From assembly GCA_018920305.1 (NCBI GenBank), contig JAHLMO010000001.1, positions 101,926-165,925 of the forward strand: a stretch of 64,000 nucleotides of DNA. Reading direction: 5' to 3'. The notes beneath the pieces were generated by a model. That model searched no databases. It was not told the origin of the DNA and saw only the letters and a program-made list of their open reading frames with translations. The position numbers and the translations under genes were made by a program. Positions 3,775 to 64,000 of the stretch are shown here, in pieces. Numbering within the stretch: the stretch's first letter is position 1; each line of letters opens with the position of its first letter. Origin of the DNA: Candidatus Aenigmatarchaeota archaeon (GTDB lineage Archaea; Aenigmatarchaeota; Aenigmatarchaeia; CG10238-14; SpSt-28).

Positions 3775-3795
3775 TTTTAAATTAATTTCAAAACT

Positions 3796-3918
3796 TTTTT
3801 ATGAAGTTTCAGACATTTTTTATGAACATTCAAATATTTTTTATGAAGTTTCAAACATTTTTTGTGAAATTTCTGATATTTTTTATGAACATTCAAATAT
3901 TTTTTATGAAGTTTCAAA
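3796..3918. repeat. Six tandem degenerate 20-21-bp direct repeats, consensus TTTTTATGAAnnTTCAnAnAT.
   Basis: Read directly: tttttatgaagtttcagacat / tttttatgaacattcaaatat / tttttatgaagtttcaaacat / tttttgtgaaatttctgatat / tttttatgaacattcaaatat / tttttatgaagtttcaaata. Confidence 0.8.
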
Positions 3919-4191
3919 TAATTATTAGAGTAGCTATATAGTGTATGTAAAAATTGTTGAACCGCTATATAGTTTTTTGATCAACTTTAATTTTTTAAAA
4001 TTATTAATTAATATAACAGTGTAATATTTTAGTTATTATTTATAGGTAAATATAAACTTATAGTTATAGTTAGGATCAACTTTTCAGAATTTGTTTTATT
4101 ATATCTTAATTTTATTTTAGTTTTTTAATATTAAATCATTACTCAAAAAGGAATTGGAAAGTTCATAAAAATAGGCTAGATTTAATTATTT

Positions 4192-14179: not shown

Positions 14180-14283
14180 AGCCCCGTCGTCTAGTGGCCA
14201 AGGATGCCGGGCTTTGGTCAAGCCAAAGCTTTGAAAATAATGAAAGAAACCCGGAGACCCCGGTTCGAATCCGGGCGGGGCTA
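14180..14283 (+). tRNA. tRNA-Gln (anticodon UUG) carrying a 31-nt intron at the canonical 37/38 position.
   Basis: Acceptor AGCCCCG/CGGGGCT. Anticodon stem CCGGG/CCCGG. Loop CUUUGG interrupted by tcaagccaaagctttgaaaataatgaaagaa. T-arm CCCGG-TTCGAAT-CCGGG. No encoded CCA. Confidence 0.8.
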
Positions 14284-41221: not shown

Positions 41222-42205
41222 GTGGAAAAAGTTGAATGGTTGTATAAAACCTTTGATGAAGAAACAGATGAGAGATTTGGAAAAGACCCTTCTCAAAGAA
41301 ATTTAGAAGAATTAAAAAATACTGGAATTATAAATATCGATAAGCATACTGGACCTACGAGTCATTTAATTTCTGAGTATGTTAAAAACATATTAAAAAC
41401 TAAAAAAAGTGGTCATATAGGAACTTTAGATCCAAACGCAAGCGGAGTTTTGCCTATATTGCTTGATAGAAGTACAAGATTAGCTCCGTTATTTCAAAAA
41501 TTAGATAAAGAATATATTGGAATAATGCATTTGCATAAAGATATTAGCGATGAAATTCTTATAGAATTTGTTGAAAATAAGTTTATAGGAAAAATTCAAC
41601 AACTTCCTCCGAGAAGAAGTGCTGTAGCTAGAGTTTTAAGAGGAAGATATGTTTATGAAGCAAAAGTATTAGAAAAAGATGGTAAAGATGTTTTGTTTAG
41701 AATAATTTGTGAAAGCGGTTTCTATGTTAGAAAATATGTACATGATATAGGACAAAAACTAAAAATAGGAGCTCATTTAAAAGAACTAAGAAGAGTTTCC
41801 ATAGGAAAGTATGATTTTGAAAATAATCAATATCTTAAGATTTTTGATGAAGAAAATTCTATAAGTTTATTTGAGCTTGCAAAAATTGCTGATGATGAAG
41901 ATAAATTAAAAAAAGTAATATTACCTGCAGAGTATTGTTTACCTCACATAAAAAAAGTTTTTGTAAAAGATACTGCGATTTATAATATAACTTTAGGTTC
42001 TCCATTATATGTTGCTGGTATTACAAGAGTTCAAAAGGGAATAAAAAAAGATGAGTTAGTAGCGATATTTAGCTTAAAAAATGAGTTAATAGCTTTTGGA
42101 AAATCAATGATGAGTGATGAAGAGATGATTAAAGCAAAAGAAGGAGTTGCTGTTAAAGTAGATAGAGTTTTTATAGAAAAAGGTATATATCCAAAGCTAG
42201 TCTAA
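41222..42205 (+). CDS. cbf5: Cbf5 (H/ACA snoRNP pseudouridine synthase, TruB family) with a PUA domain.
   Basis: Catalytic Asp motif GHIGTLDPNASGVLPI. C-terminal PUA (FVKDTAIYNITLGSPLYVAGI). 327 aa. Confidence 0.85.
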   Translation: MEKVEWLYKTFDEETDERFGKDPSQRNLEELKNTGIINIDKHTGPTSHLISEYVKNILKTKKSGHIGTLDPNASGVLPILLDRSTRLAPLFQKLDKEYIGIMHLHKDISDEILIEFVENKFIGKIQQLPPRRSAVARVLRGRYVYEAKVLEKDGKDVLFRIICESGFYVRKYVHDIGQKLKIGAHLKELRRVSIGKYDFENNQYLKIFDEENSISLFELAKIADDEDKLKKVILPAEYCLPHIKKVFVKDTAIYNITLGSPLYVAGITRVQKGIKKDELVAIFSLKNELIAFGKSMMSDEEMIKAKEGVAVKVDRVFIEKGIYPKLV

Positions 42206-43059: not shown

Positions 43060-43092
43060 ATTTTTGAGTAAAGATAATTTATTTAATATGAT

Positions 43093-43165
43093 GCCGGGGT
43101 AGCTCAGTTGGTAGAGCGTCCGGCTGTTAACCGGAAGGTCGCCGGTTCAAATCCGGCCCCCGGCG
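43093..43165 (+). tRNA. tRNA-Asn (anticodon GUU).
   Basis: Acceptor GCCGGGG/CCCCGGC. Anticodon stem-loop TCCGG-CTGTTAA-CCGGA. T-loop GGTTCAAAT. Discriminator G. Confidence 0.85.
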
Positions 43166-43257
43166 AATCAACAAACAACAATAAATATAGAAAGAATAGC
43201 CACTAAAGTTTTTGACCAAACAACACAAATTTATATAACAGTAAAAATTAATTTTTT

Positions 43258-43330
43258 ATGCCCTACCTCGCCAGCCTCTGACGAGCTATGAGTCAAGCTA
43301 GCTATGACTCGGATGCACAGGGTAGGGCAT
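43258..43330. ncRNA. GC-rich 73-nt structured element (candidate small RNA). A 10-bp closing stem ATGCCCTACC/GGTAGGGCAT encloses an internal GAGTCA/TGACTC stem.
   Basis: Read directly. Local GC far above the roughly 25% GC surroundings, with nested inverted repeats. Sits between tRNA-Asn and the 3' end of a minus-strand gene. No class assigned. Confidence 0.3.
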
Positions 43331-43342
43331 AGCGATTGTATA

Positions 43343-44317
43343 CTATATTGAAGTTAATATGTTTTTAATTATTAGATTTTTTGTTTTTTCTACAAAACTA
43401 TCTTTTATTAGATTTATATTATCGACATACGAATGATAGAACGAATAGAAAAAGTATAAATTTTTATTGTTTATAGATGTAAATAAATACGTTTTATTCT
43501 TAATTTTTTCAAAGTTTAACAAAGTAAAAGCTTCATATACAAGGTCATCATTATAAATAATAGAGCATTTATCGAATCCTATACAATCTACAACAAATAT
43601 CTTTTTTGATTTAATCAGAACATCTAAGTTTTCTTTTTCAAAGACTCTGTATCCATAACACCAATAATAAGGTTTATCGTAGGATAATTCTGTTGAGCCA
43701 GAAAGAACAATAAGAACTTCTTTTAATATTTTATCTCTCGTTTTTTTACTCAATATAATATCCAATAAGGTAGATATGGAAGTAGAATTATCTACTACTC
43801 CATTTAGTACCGTATCATAATGAGAAAAGATTAAAATCTTTGGGTTTTTAGTATTTCCTATTAAAATGTTTCCAGTTTTATATTTTTCTTTTTTGATTTT
43901 AACGTAACCTTCAATAACTTCTGCATCTAATACTTTTTTAACATCCTCTCTTCTTATATTTATTGAAGGAGAAAAGTAAAAAGTTGCCAATGAAAAATCT
44001 TTACAATATGGATTGTAAGATATGCTTGGAGTATTGAAATTTTCCTTAATAATTATATTGCTTATCAAATTTTTTTCTTCAATTTTTCCACTTACGAAAG
44101 AAGCTGGAATAGACTCTATTTCTTTACCATCTATATACAATCTACTTTTTCCATTTGGTATTGTATTTTCGAACTTTTGTATTTCGAAATATATATTATT
44201 CTCTTCTAGTATTTCAGAGATAGTTCTAATAACTTCTTTTTCTTTCTTTCCTCTTATAGGATACTGTTTAATTAAAAAATTGAGAATAGATTTCCAAGTT
44301 ACTTCTTTCATAGCCAT
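43343..44317 (-). CDS. M28/M20-like metallopeptidase-fold protein.
   Basis: Blocks ILIFSHYDTV (H-x-D) and VDNSTSISTLLDI (D-D/N-x-S-G-like), in the order expected for M28-family zinc ligands. Rest of the protein not recognisable. Confidence 0.35.
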   Translation of the reverse strand: MAMKEVTWKSILNFLIKQYPIRGKKEKEVIRTISEILEENNIYFEIQKFENTIPNGKSRLYIDGKEIESIPASFVSGKIEEKNLISNIIIKENFNTPSISYNPYCKDFSLATFYFSPSINIRREDVKKVLDAEVIEGYVKIKKEKYKTGNILIGNTKNPKILIFSHYDTVLNGVVDNSTSISTLLDIILSKKTRDKILKEVLIVLSGSTELSYDKPYYWCYGYRVFEKENLDVLIKSKKIFVVDCIGFDKCSIIYNDDLVYEAFTLLNFEKIKNKTYLFTSINNKNLYFFYSFYHSYVDNINLIKDSFVEKTKNLIIKNILTSI

Positions 44318-45549
44318 TCTTCAATAATTATATTGTCTTTCGATAAATTTTTAAATTTTATTTTTTTATTTTCGAATGCAGTTTCGAAAACTTTGATGCT
44401 AATTGTTTGTTGCAAATCTCCTATAGATAAGTTATCTATGTCTATTTGATTTAATAGTTTGTCGACATTTTCTTTAATCATATTCAAAAGTTGATGCGAA
44501 AAATATGGTTTATAAATTAATTCATAGGCATCTTTGCTTAAATTTCCTATGAGTATATTCTTTGTTCTTTGTGATAGTTTTAATAAGGTAGAATCGTTTG
44601 GATATTCGAGCTTTACAATAAAATTAGTGATGAATTTAGGATCTATTTTTAATAACCATTCAAAAAATTTATTTTCAGCATTATTTTCTCTTTCGTAAGT
44701 ATCTATCATTGTTTTACTAAATCTTAATAAACCAGTTATATACGCTGGATAATAATCGTTAGCTGAAGGTCTCCAATATAAACCTCTTATTAAAGTGTCT
44801 AAATCTTCTTTACTTTTGATTTCAATTTCCTTAACAGTTTTTTCTTCTTTATTATAGTAATAAACATATTTTGGCAATTTTTTGCTATGGCGCCATATCG
44901 TATACATGCCTAAAGAAAACAAACTAGAAACATCTATAGGCTGTATGTTGTAACTTTTCCTTATAATGCTATGATAAAACTCTGGAAGCGTAAGATTAGT
45001 TGTACTTCTTATAGTAATAAATTCATATGGCATACTAAGTGGTATTTCTGCAGCCTTTAATTTTTTTATTACAATGACTTCATCTTTTCTATTCTTATCT
45101 ACTTCTAATGTTGCAAAGATTGGATTAAATTTATTAAAATCCTCTGGATAATTTTCTATCGCACTTTTTCTAGCTTCGAGTGTTACAAAAGAATAAAGTG
45201 GAGATAGATTATTTTTGTCATTATTAACATATTTTTCTAGATGCATTGTAATAATAGTTTGAAGAGATGGTGCTATAATACAATCATGAAATCCAAAAAA
45301 ACTTGTTTGTGAATTTTCGTAATTAGTTTGTTGCTTTAGTATTTTTGATTTGAGATCTTCTAACTCTCCAATTACATTATTTATTTCGTTTTCTTCTACG
45401 TAATATATTTTTCTTAATACTTCTTGTTGTATTTTTTTCACTCTTTCTTCATATTCTTTACTCTCTACATATCTTTTAAATTCTGAAACTCTTATATTTC
45501 TATTAAAGTATAATTCATTAATTAGAACTGTTAGTGAGCTGTAAAACAA
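44308..45549 (-). CDS. Hypothetical protein (413 aa), co-operonic with the peptidase-like gene.
   Basis: Long ORF with no motif recognised. 10-nt overlap with the downstream gene. Confidence 0.3.
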   Translation of the reverse strand: MFYSSLTVLINELYFNRNIRVSEFKRYVESKEYEERVKKIQQEVLRKIYYVEENEINNVIGELEDLKSKILKQQTNYENSQTSFFGFHDCIIAPSLQTIITMHLEKYVNNDKNNLSPLYSFVTLEARKSAIENYPEDFNKFNPIFATLEVDKNRKDEVIVIKKLKAAEIPLSMPYEFITIRSTTNLTLPEFYHSIIRKSYNIQPIDVSSLFSLGMYTIWRHSKKLPKYVYYYNKEEKTVKEIEIKSKEDLDTLIRGLYWRPSANDYYPAYITGLLRFSKTMIDTYERENNAENKFFEWLLKIDPKFITNFIVKLEYPNDSTLLKLSQRTKNILIGNLSKDAYELIYKPYFSHQLLNMIKENVDKLLNQIDIDNLSIGDLQQTISIKVFETAFENKKIKFKNLSKDNIIIEEWL

Positions 45550-45586
45550 AAACTCGAATGAATATATTTCTCTTTCAATGATTTTT

Positions 45587-45619
45587 GGGGGGTTTTTGGC
45601 AATTTAGTGCCAACCCCCC
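45587..45619. other. GC hairpin GGGGGG-TTTT-TGGCA-ATTTAG-TGCCA-A-CCCCCC in a divergent intergenic region.
   Basis: Read directly. G6/C6 outer stem plus TGGCA/TGCCA inner stem, in otherwise AT-rich DNA about 40 nt upstream of the minus-strand ORF start. Confidence 0.3.
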
Positions 45620-45829
45620 GTTAAATGTCCAGTTAGATTAATAAAAAAGACTAAAGACCAAAATAATATTAGTATTAGTAATAATTGATATGGTTTTCTA
45701 ATTTTTTGCCAAATATTTAATTTATCTAATATTATCTTATTACTCATAAAATAGTTAGTTATAATATAGGAAAGCTTTTAATATTTTTCTATTTTCAATA
45801 TGATTTAAATAAAAATCAAAAATTGTTTT

Positions 45830-63138: not shown

Positions 63139-63193
63139 TAACGATCTATTTATTTTTAATCCTAAAGATATAATATTATTGAGATTTACGCGA

Positions 63194-64000
63194 GTTAGAA
63201 TCAGACTAATGTAGGATTGAAAGTCATTTGCAAATCTCCACGCCCCATTTATTTTATTTAGTTAGAATCAGACTAATGTAGGATTGAAAGTCACTCAAAT
63301 ATTTAATATCAAAATCTTGCAAAATGTTAGAATCAGACTAATGTAGGATTGAAAGTTTCAATTTTCCCATTATTACCCCTTACTCCAGCAAGTTAGAATC
63401 AGACTAATGTAGGATTGAAAGAATTATTATCAATTATAAATTCGTTATTAATTTTTACTGTTAGAATCAGACTAATGTAGGATTGAAAGCTGAAATGTAT
63501 TGGTTTAATATTTTTATAGTTTTTTTGTTAGAATCAGACTAATGTAGGATTGAAAGATATTAAAAAACTCATTGCCAGCAAAAAACATACTCAAGTTAGA
63601 ATCAGACTAATGTAGGATTGAAAGTAAATATTTAATAAAAATATTATTTATTATGGTTTCTGGTTAGAATCAGACTAATGTAGGATTGAAAGAATTATTA
63701 TATCAAAATCTCTTATTTCTACATCTTTTATAGTTAGAATCAGACTAATGTAGGATTGAAAGAAAGTAAAAATTCATTATTTCCTTCTATTTTCATATTC
63801 GTTAGAATCAGACTAATGTAGGATTGAAAGTAACATTATCGTAATGTTATAATATTTAAAGATTTTTATGTTAGAATCAGACTAATGTAGGATTGAAAGG
63901 AATGTAAACGAAAGAATAAAAACGAAATTGATTGAAGTTAGAATCAGACTAATGTAGGATTGAAAGTTTTTCGTTTGGAGAATAAACATTTACGAAATTA
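63194..64000 (+). CRISPR. CRISPR array with 30-bp repeat GTTAGAATCAGACTAATGTAGGATTGAAAG. 12 complete repeats, spacers of 35-40 bp, and a 13th spacer truncated by the window end.
   Basis: Identical repeats start at 63194, 63261, 63326, 63392, 63460, 63527, 63595, 63663, 63733, 63801, 63870 and 63937, all read directly. The repeat ends in ATTGAAAG (the 8-nt crRNA 5' tag produced by Cas6 in type I/III systems). An AT-rich leader lies 5', so the array is transcribed on the plus strand. Confidence 0.95.

Follow-up and report, generated by a model that had tools for sequence, protein, structure and literature searches.

A probable single-hairpin box H/ACA guide RNA gene in a lineage of Candidatus Aenigmatarchaeota

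The DNA analysed here, referred to as the window, is a 64-kb stretch from a lineage of Candidatus Aenigmatarchaeota (DPANN) known from metagenome-assembled genomes (MAGs), as established by look-ups of exact proteins and a genome scan based on Cbf5. At positions 43258-43330 it contains a 73-nt element that an earlier note on the same DNA had singled out as a GC-rich segment and a candidate structural RNA gene, placed between a tRNA-Asn gene and the 3' end of a minus-strand gene. Both the sequence and the location are as described in that note (Table 1), and the GC content of the element is 56.2%, compared with 25.3% for the window. A scan for 50-nt stretches with at least 50% GC identified 12 islands in the 64 kb, six of which contain seven tRNA genes, while four are located inside open reading frames (ORFs). 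The remaining two islands are a hairpin at 45587-45636 and the element.

The minimum free energy of the element is -29.9 kcal/mol on the plus strand (z = -3.1; two of 200 shuffled sequences were as stable) and -32.0 kcal/mol on the minus strand (z = -3.0). It is single-copy, with no further copies found by repeat searches of the 64-kb window. Nor was there any match in the covariance-model scan that had been proposed as a check: Rfam 15 gave no hit to the element at gathering scores in a scan of the window, and none at E <= 10 over positions 43170-43420. The element therefore represents a new sequence family, outside the curated families in Rfam, including the archaeal H/ACA ones.

To the sequence in the window, searches of related Aenigmatarchaeota MAGs and metagenomes added ten further distinct homologs, which gives 11 sequences in three clades. 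Seven near-identical strains (L001-L007) contain an element that is 98-99% identical. The MAGs with a copy include JAWBAK01 (ZZQ_201901_bins_25), GCA_039001335.1, GCA_038735415.1 and GCA_038997915.1. In another genome (L008), the one close relative that emerged from the scan with Cbf5 and in which Cbf5 is 97% identical, the element is 95% identical, and both of its flanks consist of different DNA: a 167-aa ORF is located between the tRNA-Asn gene and the element, and a gene for RNase Z is located 70 nt downstream of the element, from which it is separated in the window by two minus-strand genes (2.5 kb). Homologs of RNase Z with 66-78% identity led to diverged copies of the element in L062, L063/L064, L065 and L066/L067. 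A scan of metagenomes with a pattern drawn solely from the kink-turn (K-turn) and loop region of the element, which fixes the core of the apical loop, gave L096 and the third clade (L087/L097), with one copy per contig, while 15 of the 18 hits were chance matches in unrelated GC-rich DNA. In the clade of L087 and L097, the sequence of the lower stem is entirely different, and the neighbouring gene is a convergent ORF of 236 aa, which we take, without a Pfam check, to encode a metallophosphoesterase.

The element was not found by BLAST in L009, which encodes a Cbf5 of 67% identity, nor in about 50 loci from Woesearchaeota and Nanoarchaeota, and a search with the covariance model did not find it in L009-L015 and L017. 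It is also missing from L068-L071, RNase Z loci that are further removed (58-62% identity) and have lost synteny, and a scan of viral contigs with the core pattern gave chance matches only. The element is kept as a unit in eleven distinct sequences from three clades, despite changed flanks and neighbouring genes, and is therefore a self-contained conserved unit in changing surroundings.

The genes that lie between tRNA-Asn and RNase Z are not the same in the window (43167-45829) and in L008 (L008:6947-7706). The insert in the window consists of minus-strand ORFs of 324 aa and 413 aa, neither with a Pfam match, and the insert in L008 of a single, unrelated ORF of 167 aa on the plus strand; the putative H/ACA gene is the sole piece that they have in common. 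The second intergenic GC island without a tRNA gene also belongs to this region. It forms a hairpin at 45586-45619 (GGGGGGUU...UGGCA/UGCCA...AACCCCCC; z = -3.4 on the plus strand and -3.9 on the minus strand) in the divergent intergenic region of the 413-aa gene and RNase Z. L008 has neither this hairpin nor the two-gene insert.

To examine the fold, we aligned the 11 sequences, which represent about three lineages, in a model-based alignment (A5) that was fitted to the proposed structure and to that extent favours it. Positions in the element are numbered from window position 43258 as 1. In this alignment, 95.3% of the cells are paired, and compensatory double changes are seen in 10 of the 18 pairs; this was the comparative check for compensatory changes that the earlier note had called for. 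None of 500 shuffles came up to the observed values for the percentage of paired cells, for the counts of pairs or cells with double changes, or for the covariation score, while the count of further pair types was not above that of the shuffles. When the 3' partners were slid by 1-3 columns as a control, pairing fell to 32-49%. RNAalifold, which makes its own structure prediction, recovered the same three helices, along with two additional invariant pairs inside the pocket that are possible for the free RNA. We argue that the covariation signal is real because of the slid controls and this independent prediction.

The lower stem (P1, or H1) has nine base pairs, all of which are formed in every one of the 11 sequences (100% of cells), and six of the nine pairs show compensatory changes. 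Its variants include CCCUACC/GGUAGGG, CCCCAACC/GGUUGGGG, CCCCACC/GGUGGGG, CCCCAUCC/GGAUGGGG and GCCUUGCYY/RRGCAAGGC. The upper stem (P2, or H2; element 20-24/52-56) has five Watson-Crick pairs, three of which show compensatory changes (C-G to U-A; G-C to A-U and U-A; A-U to U-A), and a sixth position (25·51) with the variability that one expects at 3b·3n in a K-turn. Above it, G26 and A27 are invariant, as are G49 and A50 on the 3' side, where the preceding bulge is UAU, AAU or GAU. The stem of 3 bp that follows contains one covarying pair, C29-G44, which is U-A in L066. Together, G26 A27 and G49 A50, the bulge of three nucleotides and the covarying stem form what is predicted to be a K-turn, a putative site for L7Ae. 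Two other registers of the K-turn were tried and dropped: G23·A50/A24·G49, in that G23 is an A in L063 and L066, and A34·G49/G33·A50, which leaves the stem on the side of the pocket unpaired.

The internal loop between the two stems, the candidate pseudouridylation pocket, is conserved. In the 5' strand, AGCC is invariant and the bases upstream vary by clade (GCCAGCC, ACCAGCC or NNAAAGCC), while in the 3' strand UGCAC is invariant in all 11 sequences and only the last base is A or G. An A-Y-A box is present on the 3' side of the lower stem in all sequences, as AUA in six and as ACA in the other five. In nine of them it follows the stem directly, and in L087 and L097 a spacer of 1 nt comes between the two. 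The sequence 3' of this box is unrelated between the clades.

Table 1. Features predicted at and around the element, in window coordinates; element numbers count from 43258
Feature	Position	Strand	Remarks
cbf5	41222..42205	+	327-aa ORF; H/ACA pseudouridine synthase, predicted protein partner
tRNA-Asn	43092-43166		
Candidate archaeal TATA box (TTTATATA)	43230..43237	+	-30 to -23 from G43260; 8/8 match
Predicted H/ACA sRNA core	43260..43331	+	runs from the foot of the lower stem (G3) through the final A of the ANA box; alignments A4, A5
Lower stem P1/H1, 5' strand (GCCCUACCU)	43260..43268	+	element 3-11; pairs with 43320-43328
Pocket, 5' guide strand (CGCCAGCC)	43269..43276	+	element 12-19; AGCC invariant
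Upper stem P2/H2, 5' strand (UCUGAC)	43277..43282	+	pairs with 43308-43313
K-turn, non-bulged strand (G26 A27)	43283..43284	+	invariant in 11/11; placed so as to form the sheared pairs G26·A50 and A27·G49
K-turn canonical stem, 5' strand (GCU)	43285..43287	+	element 28-30; pairs with 43300-43302; also by RNAalifold
Apical loop (AUGAGUCAAGCU)	43288..43299	+	element 31-42, 12 nt
K-turn canonical stem, 3' strand (AGC)	43300..43302	+	element 43-45
K-turn bulge L1-L3 (UAU), then G49 A50	43303..43307	+	bulge at element 46-48
Upper stem P2/H2, 3' strand (CUCGGA)	43308..43313	+	covariation with the 5' strand
Pocket, 3' guide strand (UGCACA)	43314..43319	+	element 57-62
Lower stem P1/H1, 3' strand (GGGUAGGGC)	43320..43328	+	element 63-71
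ANA box (AUA in the window)	43329..43331	+	element 72-74
324-aa ORF	stop codon at 43343	-	ends 13 nt from the element

This fold retains part of the one drawn previously from the single sequence. The two stems quoted at the time, ATGCCCTACC/GGTAGGGCAT and GAGTCA/TGACTC, are both present in the sequence. The first, described as a closing stem of 10 bp, is supported by covariation for 3-11/63-71 only, and its outermost A-U and U-A pairs use the first two bases of the A-Y-A box. The second, an inner stem GAGUCA/UGACUC around a loop of 9 nt, can form in the window but is not what is conserved: no compensatory changes support it, five of the 11 sequences lack its middle pair, and most of it is lost in L087 and L097. 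The upper part is instead built from UCUGA/UCRGA (P2), the sheared pairs G26·A50 and A27·G49, and GCU/AGC. The broader claim that the segment is a structural small-RNA gene is supported by its conservation as a unit and by its covarying stems.

Several features favour a gene on the plus strand, since the wobble pairs, the GA/GA and A-Y-A motifs and the scores of the covariance model are all strand-specific. The model scores 104 bits on the plus strand and 19-24 bits on the minus strand. G·U pairs (U11·G63, U22·G54 and, in L063, G3·U71) are seen on the plus strand only and correspond to A·C mismatches on the minus strand, and it is likewise only on the plus strand that the GA/GA and A-Y-A motifs make sense. 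A run of at least four T follows within about 35 nt downstream on the plus strand in every homolog. The distant homolog L087 also has an 8/8 match to the TATA box (TTTAAATA) at the same distance as in the window, while the box is weaker or displaced in the other homologs. In DNA with 75% AT, the TATA-like box and the downstream T-runs are only suggestive of expression.

We consider it likely that the element is an unannotated gene of about 72 nt on the plus strand for a single-hairpin archaeal box H/ACA guide small RNA (sRNA), an identity that had previously been put forward as speculation and that the comparative data now support. Genes for such guides, which direct Cbf5 to convert one specific uridine to pseudouridine, are of a familiar kind. 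According to Muller et al. 2008 (PMC2377435), the lower stem H1 of H/ACA motifs comprises 7 bp or more and each strand of the loop 5-11 nt, the stem H2 has 5 or 6 bp and is topped by a K-turn or K-loop, and an ANA box, mostly ACA, flanks H1 at a distance of 14-15 nt from the target. Toffano-Nioche et al. 2015 (PMC4652768) give 7-9 bp for the lower stem and 14-16 nt for the spacing, and up to 17 nt from the box has been shown to be functional (PMC7075261). The H1 of the element is 9 bp long, which is also within the 7-9 bp of canonical motifs, the strands of the pocket are 7-8 nt (5') and 6 nt (3') long, and H2 has 5-6 bp and leads into the K-turn with tandem sheared G·A pairs, a geometry read from the sequence. 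The ANA box flanks the lower stem on its 3' side in all 11 sequences. Between box and pocket there are 15 nt in nine of them (window 43314-43328), compared with 16 nt in L087 and L097. The 3' half corresponds to the common "x/6/9" arrangement in the nomenclature of Toffano-Nioche et al. (PMC4652768). An ACA-type box, which the earlier note had missed, thus exists after all, and it departs from the textbook in that roughly half of the homologs carry AUA in place of ACA. The pattern of conservation, with an invariant 3' guide and a 5' guide that varies by clade, fits the dominance of the 3' guide, which is reported to carry the greater weight (PMC2377435, PMC7075261).

Two predicted protein partners are encoded in the lineage. 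The gene for Cbf5, called in L001 with DKCLD, TruB_N, TruB_C_2 and PUA domains, is located 1 kb upstream of the element, and the proximity pointed out in the earlier note is therefore confirmed, but it is specific to the clade of the window and is not seen across the family. L7Ae (PF01248) is encoded at L101:6718-7092 in a sister MAG (GCA_039001335.1), about 3 kb before the start of the window, in the usual cluster of L7Ae, S28e and L24e (L101:6329-7092), and the same MAG carries the element at 99% identity. A crude motif search of the window for Nop10 and L7Ae gave false positives only, and Nop10 and Gar1 were not sought elsewhere.

Judging by the known biochemistry of the H/ACA family, from which all of the following steps are taken, the RNA would fold into the 9-bp lower stem, the pseudouridylation pocket and the upper stem of 5-6 bp capped by the K-turn. 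L7Ae would bind the K-turn, the PUA domain of Cbf5 would bind the lower stem and the 3' AUA/ACA box, and Nop10 and Gar1 would complete the ribonucleoprotein. The strands of the pocket (5'-..GCCAGCC-3' and 5'-UGCACR-3') would pair with the sequences that flank a uridine in a substrate RNA, and this uridine, about 15 nt from the ANA box, would be placed in the active site of Cbf5 and converted to pseudouridine. With canonical pairing, the predicted target would be 5'-(Y)GUGCA-U-N-GGCU..-3'.

Four observations count against identification as a guide. First, the canonical target site is absent from the 16S, 23S and 5S rRNAs of Escherichia coli (L081) and of a plasmid-borne operon from Haladaptatus (L082), and also from the window, the fetched loci of the clade, and the 5S rRNA and nearby tRNAs of the lineage (L101). 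The missing target carries little weight because the 16S and 23S rRNAs of the lineage itself were not among the RNAs searched. Second, the GA stem is eight layers long, counted from the pocket as far as the second G·A pair, and this is at the low end of the reported range: the stem comprises 8-11 layers in natural motifs and 10 in all crystal structures, and 10 have been argued to be necessary for activity (PMC4652768). The value is within the natural range, and we treat it as a caveat. Third, a core of 10 nt in the apical loop (UGAGUCAAGC) is invariant in all three clades, an invariance that is partly built in by the sampling, as the homologs from metagenomes were retrieved with a pattern that fixes the loop. 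The apical loops of H/ACA RNAs are usually free to vary, and an invariant loop is unexpected for a guide. Fourth, as the 11 sequences come from about three lineages, several of the compensatory changes may each go back to one evolutionary event.

The search of rRNAs and tRNAs for complementarity, which had been suggested as a test of the pocket, did give one match of an atypical kind. When the N is allowed to pair as well and the U is the one unpaired base, the two reference 16S rRNAs agree in their top-ranked site, a position in helix 34, U1056 in E. coli (GCUGCA-U-GGCUGUCG) and U993 in Haladaptatus (GGUGCA-U-GGCCGCCG). Pseudouridylation with a paired N has been found to work when an ACA box is present (PMC7075261). 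The equivalent of E. coli U1056 is the best candidate target in the reference rRNAs, a tentative one that we think is more probably wrong than right. A match to the loop was considered as well. The complement of the core of the apical loop (AGCUUGACU) occurs in E. coli 23S rRNA at about position 2340, near a GUGCA; this match was dropped, as the stretch is not conserved in the archaeal 23S rRNA examined.

The features that depart from the canon may also be taken together. The element could be an sRNA of a thermophilic lineage of Aenigmatarchaeota with an H/ACA scaffold, a GA stem of eight layers, an invariant loop and a pocket that matches helix 34 with only the U unpaired. Such an RNA might carry out an atypical, ACA-box-dependent pseudouridylation at the helix of the decoding site, or use its loop as a second surface, either as a chaperone for the folding of rRNA or for an extra protein contact. 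We give this extended reading a small chance.

A rather smaller one is given to the explanation that the element is a small RNA with a K-turn that binds L7Ae and resembles H/ACA RNAs in shape but has another job, such as a loop-based chaperone for rRNA folding or a degenerate "orphan" guide. The invariance of UGAGUCAAGC across clades in which the stems have changed would be accounted for in this way, as would the eight rather than 10 layers of the GA stem and the failure to find the canonical target in any RNA examined. However, the invariant strands of the pocket, especially UGCAC, and the invariant A-Y-A show the conservation pattern of an active guide, and the spacing of 15-16 nt is kept in every homolog. 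The absent target, for the reason given above, weighs little here as well.

It is very unlikely that the element is a cis-regulatory 5' leader of the RNase Z mRNA, in which a K-turn bound by L7Ae controls translation, as in the leader of the L7Ae mRNA. The K-turn is present, and in L008, L062, L065, L066 and L096 the element is located 35-80 nt upstream of RNase Z and in the same orientation. However, the two intervening genes in the window are on the opposite strand, a 299-aa ORF intervenes in L063, and there is no RNase Z gene within the stretches of about 2.5 kb from L087 and L097. There are also T-runs between the element and the start codon of RNase Z, and a leader of this type leaves the lower stem, the ANA box and the conserved pocket unexplained.

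Two further explanations are hardly credible. A miniature inverted-repeat transposable element (MITE) or integration scar, with terminal inverted repeats of 10-11 bp at the edge of a variable region beside a tRNA gene, would agree with the perfectly inverted termini and with the different gene content between tRNA-Asn and RNase Z in the window and L008, but the element is single-copy in every locus as well as in the window, as the search for repeats that had been named as a refuting check also found, its termini change by compensation and its interior is more conserved than its ends, which is the reverse of a transposable element, its matches are asymmetric between the strands, and neither the scan of viral contigs (no copies) nor that of metagenomes (one copy per contig) suggests mobility. 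An RNA on the minus strand, serving as the terminator or hairpin in the 3' untranslated region of the 324-aa gene, the end of which is 13 nt from the element, would gain from the slightly better folding of that strand (-32.0 kcal/mol) and from a T5 run that follows the element on it, but the 324-aa gene is absent from L008, L062-L066, L087 and L097, where the element is kept, A·C mismatches take the place of the conserved G·U pairs, and the covariance model scores far lower (19-24 versus 104 bits). A three-way junction on the minus strand was also drawn and dropped, as its second hairpin gains an A·C mismatch in L001, L003 and L008.

Other classes of RNA were also rejected, in keeping with the earlier note. 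In place of the CUGACGA of a hammerhead ribozyme, homologs have CUAACGA, UUAACGA, CUGUGGA or CUUUGGA, and there is no GAAA and no Rfam match; the lack of fit to that pattern thus stands, while the "CUGAcGA" cited in this context is the 5' strand of P2 plus the GA of the K-turn. A box C/D sRNA lacks support in that terminal C and D boxes are absent, the sole GA/GA pairing is internal, on top of the upper stem, and Rfam gives no match. A tRNA, split tRNA or tRNA-like gene was rejected as ARAGORN, which called no tRNA at the element, and the tRNA models of Rfam find the neighbouring tRNAs and not the element.

Among known systems, the single-hairpin H/ACA sRNAs of the Thermococcales (Pab91, Pab160/Pf9, Pab21 and Pab19 in Pyrococcus abyssi; PMC2377435) are among the closest to the element identified here as a probable guide. 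They also form a single hairpin, in which the lower stem has 8-9 bp, the pocket strands have 5-11 nt and an H2 of 5-6 bp leads into a K-turn or K-loop, with an ANA box directly 3' of the stem at 14-15 nt from the target, and they are GC-rich intergenic genes that were first found by the same "GC island" logic. In contrast to them, the element has no detectable sequence similarity and no Rfam match at E <= 10, its GA stem has eight layers compared with 10 in the crystallised RNAs from Pyrococcus and Archaeoglobus (PMC4652768), and the family has an AUA box in about half of the homologs, an invariant loop core of 10 nt and a DPANN host with 25% GC.

The archaeal H/ACA guide sR-h45 of Haloferax volcanii has a GA stem that has been drawn as short as eight layers (PMC4652768), and it has been found to function in atypical geometries, namely with a paired N, provided that there is an ACA box, and with a distance to the box of up to 17 nt (PMC7075261). 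Unlike the element, it has two hairpins, an unrelated sequence, and targets in helix 69 and at position 2605 of the 23S rRNA. Pab19 of P. abyssi (16S U1017) and sR136 of S. islandicus (U1009) pair non-canonically with a segment of 16S rRNA at the A site (PMC2377435, PMC11077068), and from the quoted 5'-UGC-3' context we infer that this segment is helix 34, about 4 nt upstream of the candidate uridine of the element. They differ from the element in that the uridine would be another one, Pab19 has a 5' guide of 15 nt as well as an additional stem-loop on its 5' side, and sR136 is classed with the atypical guides, while the target of the element is a candidate. The 5' leader of the archaeal L7Ae mRNA (PMC6298567) also has a K-turn in a hairpin, and in several homologs the element is located immediately upstream of a protein gene. 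Unlike the leader, however, the element has the full H/ACA scaffold of lower stem, pocket and ANA box, and it is not tied to one downstream gene.

A few other features were observed in the window and its relatives. At the end of the window (63164-64000), and running off it, is a clustered regularly interspaced short palindromic repeat (CRISPR) array with at least 12 copies of a 30-nt repeat (GTTAGAATCAGACTAATGTAGGATTGAAAG) at a spacing of about 67 nt; a few spacings are about 134 nt, where a copy of the repeat was probably skipped in the family listing. A tRNA gene of 104 nt at 14180-14283, which presumably bears an intron, scores 50.8 bits with the Rfam tRNA model and was missed by ARAGORN. 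At 3787-3933, there is a tandem array of about seven units of 21 nt (TTCAAAYMTTTTTTATGAASW). In L065, downstream of RNase Z-NFACT-TatD, a homolog of the DUF87 ATPase (L065:5379-7979; 866 aa) contains intein and LAGLIDADG domains, while its counterparts in L063 and L066 are intein-free and 426 aa long. A lone gene for 5S rRNA in the sister MAG (L101:1828-1946) is located beside SRP54 and FtsY. The rRNA genes of the lineage appear to be unlinked, because this gene stands with no 16S or 23S gene nearby.

Apart from its departures from the canon, the element is an ordinary gene of a well-understood class, and its structure is well supported. To our knowledge, guide RNAs are almost never annotated in DPANN MAGs. 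In those parts of the archaeal H/ACA literature that were available to us, the sole DPANN record is a citation for Nanoarchaeum equitans. The results add a structurally well-supported H/ACA family for the Aenigmatarchaeota, with an alignment and a covariance model fit to seed an Rfam entry, and they provide a concrete prediction of the target, 5'-GUGCA-U-N-GGCU-3'. If the match to helix 34 is true, it would represent a natural case of the "N-paired" geometry of guide and target that has so far been shown with engineered substrates only. More generally, these results suggest that RNA-guided pseudouridylation, beyond the guide-independent activity of Cbf5, is kept in small, host-dependent archaea.

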